Source: a virus
Lineage: Duplodnaviria > Heunggongvirae > Uroviricota > Caudoviricetes
Length of the DNA: 25,735 nt
IMG/VR virus record: IMGVR_UViG_2534681655_000008
Strand: one strand, 5' to 3'
Both the position numbers and the translations under genes were made by a program. Shown piece after piece: positions 10,561 to 10,908 of this stretch (the stretch's first letter is position 1; every line of letters begins with the position of its first letter). The notes under the pieces are model-generated. The model worked only from the letters and a program-made list of their open reading frames with translations, did no database searches and was not told the origin of the DNA.

Positions 10561-10589
10561 TTGCAGTATTAATTCTGTAACGTTATTAT
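10561..10589 (+). promoter_or_regulatory. Sigma70-like promoter for the tRNA cluster (candidate late promoter): -35 TTGCAG (10561-10566), 17-bp spacer, -10 TATTAT (10584-10589), GC-rich discriminator
   Basis: Hexamers and spacing read from sequence; GCGCGC discriminator immediately before tRNA +1 is typical of stable-RNA promoters. Confidence 0.45.
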
Positions 10590-10598
10590 TCTGCGCGC

Positions 10599-10674
10599 GG
10601 CCCTTTAGCTCAGTGGTGAGAGCGAGCGACTCATAATCGCCAGGTCGCTGGTTCAAATCCAGCAAGGGCCACCA
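10599..10674 (+). tRNA. tRNA with CAU anticodon, tRNA-Ile2 (lysidine type)-like
   Basis: Full cloverleaf folded by hand (7-bp acceptor, D stem GCTC/GAGC, anticodon stem, T stem GCTGG/CCAGC, encoded CCA); near-identical to recalled E. coli ileX. Confidence 0.8.
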
Positions 10675-10675
10675 A

Positions 10676-10752
10676 CTGCCACTAGCTCATCAGGAAAGAG
10701 CGTCAACCCTTTAAGTTGAGAGTGCGAGGTTCGAGTCCCCGGTGGCGGTCCA
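10676..10752 (+). tRNA. Atypical tRNA-like gene, anticodon loop CCUUUAA (nominal anticodon UUU)
   Basis: Cloverleaf folds (acceptor CTGCCAC/GTGGCGG with one G-U, D stem GCTC/GAGC, anticodon stem TCAAC/GTTGA, T loop TTCGAGT, CCA) but C at position 33, C1-G72 and one T-stem mismatch are unusual. Confidence 0.5.
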
Positions 10753-10754
10753 GT

Positions 10755-10830
10755 GCCGACTTAGCTCAGTAGGTAGAGCAACTGACTTGTAATCAGTAGG
10801 TCACCAGTTCGATTCCGGTAGTCGGCACCA
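10755..10830 (+). tRNA. tRNA-Thr (anticodon UGU)
   Basis: Perfect acceptor GCCGACT/AGTCGGC, anticodon loop CTTGTAA, T loop TTCGATT, CCA end. Confidence 0.8.
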
Positions 10831-10833
10831 TGT

Positions 10834-10908
10834 GCGGGCATCGTATAATGGCTATTACCTCAGCCTTCCAAGCTGATGATGCGGGTTCGATTCCCGCTGC
10901 CCGCTCCA
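10834..10908 (+). tRNA. tRNA-Gly (anticodon UCC)
   Basis: Acceptor GCGGGCA/TGCCCGC, anticodon loop CTTCCAA, T loop TTCGATT, CCA; matches recalled E. coli glyT-type sequence. Confidence 0.8.

Follow-up and report, generated by a model that had tools for sequence, protein, structure and literature searches.

A probable autonomous tRNA cassette between the Q gene and the lysis genes of a lambdoid Escherichia coli prophage

Four tightly packed tRNA genes lie between the late antiterminator gene Q and the lysis genes in a 25,735-nucleotide (nt) stretch of tailed-phage DNA (IMG/VR record IMGVR_UViG_2534681655_000008), hereafter the window. Their location raises two questions: whether the promoter in front of them is the Q-dependent late promoter pR' or one of their own, and what the phage gains from the tRNAs. 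An initial annotation of the sequence had described the locus as a tRNA operon with a stable-RNA-type promoter that apparently decodes host-rare codons, and had suggested that this promoter might be pR'. Here we find that positions 10561-10908 probably form an autonomous tRNA cassette, or moron, that sits in the intergenic hot spot between Q and the lysis genes and is read from its own sigma-70 promoter, downstream of pR'. A tRNA cargo with its own promoter is common and largely understood among phages; here a known kind of lambdoid tRNA moron, with members in hundreds of annotated genomes, is found with a variant payload.

Both ARAGORN and Rfam place four tRNA genes on the plus strand (Table 1); the spacers are 1, 2 and 3 nt long, and all four genes encode their CCA. 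The packing, the coordinates and the anticodons CAU, UGU and UCC had been read correctly in the initial annotation, and the second anticodon, which it left unnamed, is UUU in an abnormal loop with a C at position 33 (C33). The placement of the genes between Q and lysis, like the tRNA cargo of Shiga toxin (Stx) phages, also holds: the order along the window is Q (9435-9800), pR' (10396-10423), cassette (10561-10908) and holin gene (11200), and the cassette is homologous to that cargo. The 721-bp tRNA region (window 10480-11200) is 100% identical to Escherichia phage PhiR47_1. Of 5426 complete E. coli genomes, 600 contain the cassette (381 bp) at a query coverage of at least 80%, and the Prokaryotic Genome Annotation Pipeline (PGAP) labels its genes there tRNA-Ile, -Lys, -Thr and -Gly.

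The promoter elements reported earlier (TTGCAG, a 17-nt spacer, TATTAT and a GC-rich discriminator, 9 nt from the first tRNA) can be read directly from the sequence, and the nine GC-rich nucleotides TCTGCGCGC (10590-10598) directly precede the first base of tRNA1. A pattern scan of IMG/VR gave a comparison set of about 120 related loci with 52 distinct upstream sequences. Across these 52, TTGC of the -35 element and GTTATTAT of the -10 element are 90-100% conserved at a fixed spacing of 17 nt, whereas sequence farther upstream is only 40-50% conserved. The distance from the end of the -10 to the tRNA is 9 nt in 109 of 116 related loci, and in some related phages the T-run of a terminator adjoins the -35. 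When the window was compared with the related loci by BLAST, homology began exactly at 10561 (about 27 loci, 96-98% identity) or at 10554, and in many loci the block ended at 10909-10910, the base after tRNA4; the promoter thus travels together with the tRNAs, as a single mosaic unit. Phages PhiR40_1 and PhiR55_1 have the same Q and pR', with a segment from Q to 10520 that is 99% identical, and a DNA adenine methylase gene replaces the cassette.

The host thrU promoter of strain K-12 has the same layout (TTGCAT-17-TAGAAT-GCGCGC). "Stable-RNA type" is therefore a fair description of what appears, by its layout, to be a sigma-70 promoter; stringent control itself is not implied. From the usual distance of 6-8 nt, transcription would be expected to start at G10595 or G10597, giving a leader of 2-4 nt. 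The homologous tRNA promoter of Stx2 phage Sp5 has a primary transcription start site (TSS) by differential RNA sequencing (dRNA-seq; PMC7547250), and this, together with the conservation, the module boundary and the thrU-like layout, supports the earlier view of an operon with its own stable-RNA-like promoter. The best-scoring consensus promoter in the region (TCGGCA-16-TATAAT, 10 of 12 positions, 10822-10849) falls inside the junction of tRNA-Thr and tRNA-Gly; its TATAAT belongs to the D-arm of glyT and stands unchanged in the host gene, and we rejected this promoter as a chance match.

The late promoter lies 165 bp upstream of the tRNA promoter. The window Q shares 79% identity with its Q933-type counterpart in Stx2a phage WGPS8. 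Just after Q, Stx2a phages carry TTTACG-16-TATCAT, then AAGAGTGGTTAC... and a hairpin; the promoter aligns with TTTACA-16-TATGCT of the window, which is followed by the same initial transcribed sequence and then by a hairpin with a run of eight T residues. This hairpin folds at -6.3 kcal/mol (z-score -1.1), compared with -12.6 kcal/mol for its Sp5 homologue. In Sakai Sp5, a +1 predicted 7 nt after the -10 sits exactly 258 nt before the end of the U-tract of the terminator tR', in exact agreement with the distance of 258 nt between pR' and tR' mapped by dRNA-seq and Term-seq (PMC7547250). No Rfam family matched the pR' region at a permissive threshold. The published Sp5 coordinates fit the RefSeq.2 record only with a presumed version offset of 142 bp; the 258-nt agreement is independent of this offset.

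Several features accompany pR'. Positions 10396-10480 are homologous to the 5' part of the precursor of the small RNA StxS, and the window is without the remaining approximately 200 nt and the strong tR'. Between Q and pR' lies a 148-amino-acid open reading frame (ORF) on the minus strand (9884-10330) with a lipoprotein-like N-terminus; it belongs to phrog_3152 (function unknown) and had no Pfam match. Q itself has 126 amino acids in the window and 144 in Stx2a phages, where its 3' end overlaps the -35 of pR'. The layout of Q, minus-strand ORF and pR' is also found in the isolated phages PhiR40_1 and PhiR55_1.

Two other readings of the promoter have to be weighed. Were TTGCAG-17-TATTAT itself the Q-dependent pR', as suggested before, the tRNAs would be the promoter-proximal part of the late transcript; its place between Q and the lysis genes, with the strong terminator at 11115-11140 downstream, would suit that role. 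The comparison contradicts it and leaves it very improbable. One tRNA promoter, with its ileZ-type tRNA, stands behind three unrelated Q families: PF06530 in the window and Stx2a phages, PF03589 in PhiR47_1 and PF06323 in PPompW. Q loading sites are specific to their Q, and such a distribution is incompatible with a Q-specific loading site. The element at 10561-10598 is thus not co-inherited with one Q type, and it has no homology to a mapped pR'; that homology, including the initial transcribed region, is found at 10396-10450, together with the closely related Q. A start 2-4 nt before the tRNA would also leave no room outside the tRNA for a pause and Q loading, and in Sp5 the mapped pR', homologous to the window's separate upstream promoter, and the tRNA promoter have distinct TSSs (PMC7547250). 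Judged by homology, the tRNA promoter is not the Q-dependent late promoter, and pR' is the predicted promoter at 10396-10423. The other reading takes the tRNA promoter-like element to be inactive here, so that the tRNAs would come from pR' only, by leak-through in lysogens and by Q antitermination after induction. Its hexamers are weak on their own, and so is the hairpin between pR' and the cassette. Even so, the conservation footprint and the module boundary at the -35 are hard to account for without function, and the homologous Sp5 element has a primary TSS (PMC7547250); we consider inactivity improbable.

The transcript of the cassette would end in a structured trailer. The 241-nt stretch of trailer and terminator (10905-11145) folds at -83.2 kcal/mol (z-score -6.1). 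An 80% homologue of the trailer lies in the intergenic region between Q and holin of phage HK639, where a 3' fragment of a tRNA-Gly gene precedes it; its hairpins 1 and 2 have changed in a compensatory manner. The trailer hairpins had no Rfam family at a permissive threshold. The trailer could be a conserved RNA element or a processing signal.

We propose that the constitutive sigma-70 promoter starts transcription 2-4 nt before tRNA1 and yields a single transcript of four CCA-encoded tRNAs and the approximately 200-nt trailer, stopping at the terminator at 11115-11140. Because the spacers measure only 1-3 nt, an RNase P cut at each tRNA 5' end should also free the 3' end of the tRNA upstream, and exonucleases would trim the remaining 1-3 nt, a scheme modelled on the processing of E. 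coli tRNA operons. In the lysogen, the cassette would be expressed from its own promoter, perhaps with some leak-through from pR', which is possible because the hairpin at 10460-10480 is weak. The proposal that the tRNAs are made in lysogens by transcripts stopping near 11140 is therefore plausible, given the terminator found there, though for a reason other than the one first put forward: the cassette has its own promoter, with a possible pR' leak. After induction, polymerase modified by Q would run from pR' across the cassette and past the terminator to reach S, R, Rz and the structural genes; replication of the genome would multiply the template and raise gene dosage. With this payload the cell would have more of three minor tRNAs that read codons ending in A, namely AUA (Ile2), ACA (Thr(UGU)) and GGA (Gly(UCC)).

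Table 1 Features of the Q-to-holin region (window coordinates)
Feature	Coordinates	Strand	Basis
Q late antiterminator gene (Q933/PF06530 type)	9435..9800	+	Pfam PF06530, E 2e-51
Q-dependent late promoter pR' (predicted), TTTACA-16-TATGCT, predicted +1 A10430	10396..10423	+	promoter scan; homology to Sp5 pR'
Weak hairpin and T8, ~30-50 nt after pR' +1	10460..10480	+	terminator scan; partial terminator at best
tRNA cassette promoter	10561..10598	+	-35 TTGCAG 10561-10566; 17-nt spacer; -10 TATTAT 10584-10589; discriminator TCTGCGCGC 10590-10598
tRNA1, tRNA-Ile2 type, CAU (lysidine-dependent, predicted to read AUA), ileZ family	10599..10674	+	ARAGORN; Rfam 72.5 bits
tRNA2, atypical, anticodon UUU (nominally Lys) on argN (Arg) scaffold	10676..10752	+	ARAGORN; Rfam 40.4 bits
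tRNA3, tRNA-Thr(UGU), exact thrU copy	10755..10830	+	100% identity to K-12 thrU over 76 nt
tRNA4, tRNA-Gly(UCC), exact glyT copy	10834..10908	+	100% identity to K-12 glyT over 75 nt
Structured 3' trailer of cassette transcript (predicted), three long hairpins	10909..11111	+	folding; HK639 homologue
Intrinsic terminator just before holin S (predicted), would end non-antiterminated transcripts	11115..11140	+	terminator scan; -11.5 kcal/mol, z-score -4.0
Holin S (P21 type), first late gene downstream of cassette	11200..11415	+	Pfam PF04971, E 1e-35

The tRNAs themselves differ in origin. tRNA1 is labelled tRNA-Ile by PGAP, as ileZ or tRNA-Ile is in the GenBank annotation of Stx phages, and is identical in 104 copies among the related loci. 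It matches K-12 ileX at 68 of 76 positions, with a compensated 6-67 pair and with positions 4, 5, 68 and 69 unchanged, so that C4-G69 and C5-G68, which are determinants for TilS, are kept. A CAU anticodon on an ileX-like body is what defines a tRNA-Ile2 by sequence, and lysidine formation is predicted for it. tRNA3 and tRNA4 are exact copies of host thrU and glyT; their flanks have no similarity to the host operon, and tyrU and the 116-nt spacer are missing. The same exact copies are present in most related loci and may reflect recent capture, or gene conversion with the host copies while the phage is integrated. Among the related loci the payload is arranged as Ile2-Arg(UCG)-Arg(UCU) in 54, Ile2-Lys(UUU)-Thr-Gly in 46 and Ile2-Lys(UUU)-Arg(UCU) in 4, and the window payload is therefore a variant of the known Stx-phage cassette. 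A literature search returned nothing on ileZ, argN or argO, and the gene history given here follows GenBank annotation and general knowledge.

The initial annotation had explained the payload as codon supplementation for late gene expression. Codons were counted in 16 late (3561 codons) and 13 early genes (2452 codons) of the window and, for reference, in 40 K-12 genes (15,000 codons). AUA occurs at 4.5 per 1000 codons in late genes (6.1 in early genes) versus 2.5 in K-12 (p 0.06 late, p 0.008 early), ACA at 10.4 versus 5.5 (p 0.002) and GGA at 14.0 versus 6.1 (p 8e-6), while AAA, the codon of tRNA2, is not significantly different at 35.4 versus 33.4. The arginine codons depart further from the K-12 set: CGG 15.2 versus 3.1 (odds ratio 5.0), AGA 4.5 versus 1.1 (4.2), AGG 2.8 versus 0.7 (4.2) and CGA 7.0 versus 2.9 (2.4). 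Three of the four cassette anticodons fit moderately enriched codons, and the enrichment is part of a general rare-codon excess of phage genes. The best available account of the payload is dosage supplementation of minor decoders of A-ending codons, which is only partly specific.

Several points weigh against the account given so far. The -35 TTGCAG agrees with the consensus at three of six positions, and the promoter scan did not list the element. A relaxed TTG-N20-TATNAT pattern has two matches in the window where 0.62 are expected, and 13 of 100 shuffles reach two. By themselves the promoter hexamers are not above chance, and the promoter call depends on the comparative evidence, with the start site for this phage placed by analogy with its Sp5 homologue. 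For the payload, the 1.8- to 2.3-fold excess of AUA, ACA and GGA in late genes is an upper estimate, the host reference being only 40 genes and fairly well expressed ones; genome-wide, E. coli AUA is about 4-5 per 1000, against which the late-gene AUA excess is largely gone. The codon match is also unspecific. CGG, AGA and AGG, the most enriched codons at four- to fivefold, go unserved here and are served by the sister Arg cassette instead, and AAA is not enriched. Thr(UGU) and Gly(UCC), being identical to host tRNAs, add dosage only and no new decoding. Finally, the cassette account leaves the role of tRNA2 unexplained.

tRNA2 is the least regular of the four genes, scoring 40.4 bits in Rfam where the other three score 65-74. 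Its loop, CCUUUAA, has the normal 7 nt in the Rfam alignment, with C at position 33 where the Rfam consensus has U. UUU at 34-36 is the anticodon of a tRNA-Lys; the canonical U33 and A73 are replaced by C33 and U73, and A73 is an identity element for lysyl-tRNA synthetase (LysRS). Rfam also flags the T-stem mismatch A51.C63 as non-standard. We rejected a shifted UUA (ochre) anticodon, since ARAGORN and Rfam both place a 7-nt loop with UUU at 34-36. Beyond universal positions the gene is unrelated to host lysT. Its homologues are instead argN (UCG) of Stx phages and a variant with UCU, present in E. coli and Shigella, from which its anticodon stem does not differ and its loop differs only at positions 33 and 35. 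That variant (E. coli ECMA0423 and Shigella flexneri SFBU1023) has the loop CUUCUAA, the stem TCAAC/GTTGA and discriminator G. The UCU form is likely a close relative or the ancestor state of the UUU form. One scaffold is thus seen with three anticodons, UCG, UCU and UUU. Arginyl-tRNA synthetase needs C35, whereas LysRS reads U34-U36 with A73 as a minor element; under these established identity rules the change of C35 to U should switch the predicted identity of tRNA2 from Arg to Lys.

The tRNA2 gene is found in 771 of the 5426 complete E. coli genomes, and in a scan of one genome per species its scaffold appeared only in E. coli, Shigella and one metagenome-assembled genome. The cloverleaf, examined in 29 distinct members of the family, is 96.9% paired; four pairs have changed in a compensatory way, and slid controls give far lower values, so the family has evolved as tRNAs. 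C33 is kept in all 52 UUU-type copies whose loop was read (loops CCUUU, ACUUU and UCUUU). tRNA2 is also the least constrained cassette gene (nucleotide diversity, pi, of 0.019 versus 0.002-0.008), at a diversity still far under that of the flanks. With neighbouring genes intact, it carries a 7-nt deletion in the 3' anticodon stem in IHE3034-type E. coli strains (L140, 436-508) and a 1-nt D-stem deletion in the PPompW prophages of O157 (L003, 2616-2691), and about half of a spread sample from the 771 genomes lack a tRNA annotation for it. A further derivative in L024, L063 and two or three more IMG/VR loci keeps the D arm, the T arm and the 3' strand of the acceptor, but its middle is unrelated and longer (…GAGCAGACGACACGATAACAGGGTTGTTGGTGCGGGG…), and ARAGORN passes over it or reports its anticodon as undetermined.

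What, then, does tRNA2 do? It may well be a relic, a prospect that we hold at somewhat below even: an Arg(UCU/UCG)-family tRNA whose anticodon loop mutated (C35 to U, U33 to C), which now works poorly or not at all and is carried along mainly because of its place between useful genes of a compact transcript. The UCU variant with its identical anticodon stem, the low Rfam score with three non-canonical features, the higher diversity, the independent disruptions and the frequent lack of annotation all fit such decay. On the other side, the C33-UUU loop is still found with an intact cloverleaf in the majority of copies and in 771 genomes, stems have changed in a compensatory manner across the family, and diversity stays far lower than in the flanks. 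The other reading is counter-defence: a lysine-accepting, nuclease-resistant tRNA2 would stand in for host tRNA-Lys(UUU), which PrrC and the PARIS nuclease AriB attack, and the cassette would then protect phage translation once these defences are triggered. Supplementation with a Lys decoder is unneeded, given that AAA is no rare codon and that the host carries six or more tRNA-Lys genes. The body of tRNA2 is unrelated to lysT. AriB cuts tRNA-Lys at C40/A41, and changes at U39, A41 and U16 block cleavage (PMC12409363); with the target's own UUU anticodon, tRNA2 is changed at all of these positions (U16 to C, U39 to G, C40 to U, A41 to U). PrrC cuts 3' of U33 in tRNA-Lys(UUU) (PMC2610378), the bond flanked here by the fixed C33. 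tRNA2 also usually travels with Thr(UGU), the second AriB target (PMC12409363). There is precedent, in that a phage tRNA-Lys, and not the E. coli one, rescues infection from PrrC170 (PMC11555353) and from AriB (PMC12445682).

Weighing against counter-defence, U73, C33 and the A51.C63 mismatch may each impair function, and lysylation is a prediction. The accompanying Thr(UGU) is host-identical and hence cleavable. The weak constraint on tRNA2, its broken copies in IHE3034 and PPompW and the unannotated half of the sampled copies, which fit a relic, all count here as well. We regard it as rather unlikely that tRNA2 acts in this way, and equally doubtful that a mutated anticodon (UCU/UCG to UUU) and a fixed U33-to-C change have made an Arg-family tRNA into a lysine decoder proof against AriB and PrrC. 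What probability these two readings leave falls to a plain, weak lysine decoder with no special role. Separately, an anti-P2-OLD role for Thr(UGU) was rejected, as it matches the host gene exactly and host tRNA-ThrU protected little, if at all, against P2-OLD (PMC12445682); the same argument from host identity rules against a host-type tRNA-Lys acting against PrrC170 (PMC11555353).

The element that carries the cassette is, by the gene content of the window, a lambdoid E. coli prophage. Its upstream part holds a cI/cro immunity region, and the P21-type holin gene at 11200 is followed by genes for lysozyme, Rz, terminase, head and tail. Near the 3' end of the window, an IS66-family element on the minus strand (23777-25673; helix-turn-helix transposase ORF, TnpB-like ORF2 and DDE transposase) occupies the expected position of the tail tape-measure gene, and because of this the prophage copy is probably defective. 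Rfam matches to isrK (3923-3999, 67 bits) and C4 antisense RNA (4024-4111, 83.6 bits) fall within a listed 383-amino-acid ORF with Ash and Rha domains (3563-4714); the stretch 3923-4111 resembles an immunity module of the P1/P7 c4-antirepressor type, here within a lambdoid phage.

For annotation, the gain is that a constitutive tRNA promoter can be told apart from the Q-dependent late promoter in this prophage family. The Stx-phage tRNA cassette emerges as a promoter-plus-payload module whose payload is exchanged between phages, and codon supplementation covers only part of that payload. Some novelty attaches only to tRNA2, with its switched anticodon and its C33, as found in 771 genomes. If tRNA2 were lysine-charged and escaped the nucleases, tRNA-based counter-defence would extend from large virulent phages to common temperate ones; the cassette would then act as a module for counter-defence and would illustrate how a switch of tRNA identity can serve to escape immunity. 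If tRNA2 is inert, it would be a clean natural case of tRNA gene decay within an otherwise conserved operon.

Among known systems, the tRNA cluster of phage T4 includes Ile (CAU), Thr (UGU), Gly (UCC) and Arg (UCU), and its classical explanation is codon supplementation. The likeness is one of overlapping anticodons rather than of compared sequences, the Arg (UCU) having its counterpart in the sister cassettes. Unlike the prophage of the window, T4 is virulent and carries tRNAs that have diverged from those of the host instead of copying them exactly. The nuclease-resistant tRNA-Lys(UUU) of the T5 type, which neutralises PARIS (PMC11464382, PMC12409363), resembles tRNA2 in being phage-borne, with UUU, and in differing from the host at positions 16, 39 and 41. 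The T5 molecule is a bona fide tRNA-Lys with U33, whereas tRNA2 has an Arg scaffold, C33 and U73, belongs to a temperate phage, is known from its sequence alone and bears signs of decay in some lineages. With the host thrU-tyrU-glyT-thrT-tufB operon of K-12 the cassette shares thrU and glyT mature sequences that are 100% identical and a similar promoter architecture; it is without tyrU, the 116-nt spacer, thrT and tufB, and has dissimilar flanks and spacers of 2-3 nt.

The closest known system is the ileZ-argN-argO cassette of Stx phages such as 933W and Sakai Sp5. Compared with it, the window has no stx genes, and the 258-nt pR'-tR' (StxS) region is cut to its first approximately 50 nt. In place of argN, tRNA-Arg(UCG), the second tRNA carries UUU and C33, and argO (UCU) is replaced by the copies of host thrU and glyT. 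The two cassettes nevertheless occupy the same position, after Q and pR' and before late cargo and lysis genes. Their promoters are homologous, alike in hexamers, in the 17-nt spacing and in the 9 nt that precede the tRNA; the first tRNA, of the ileZ type, is identical, and the second is built on the same scaffold.

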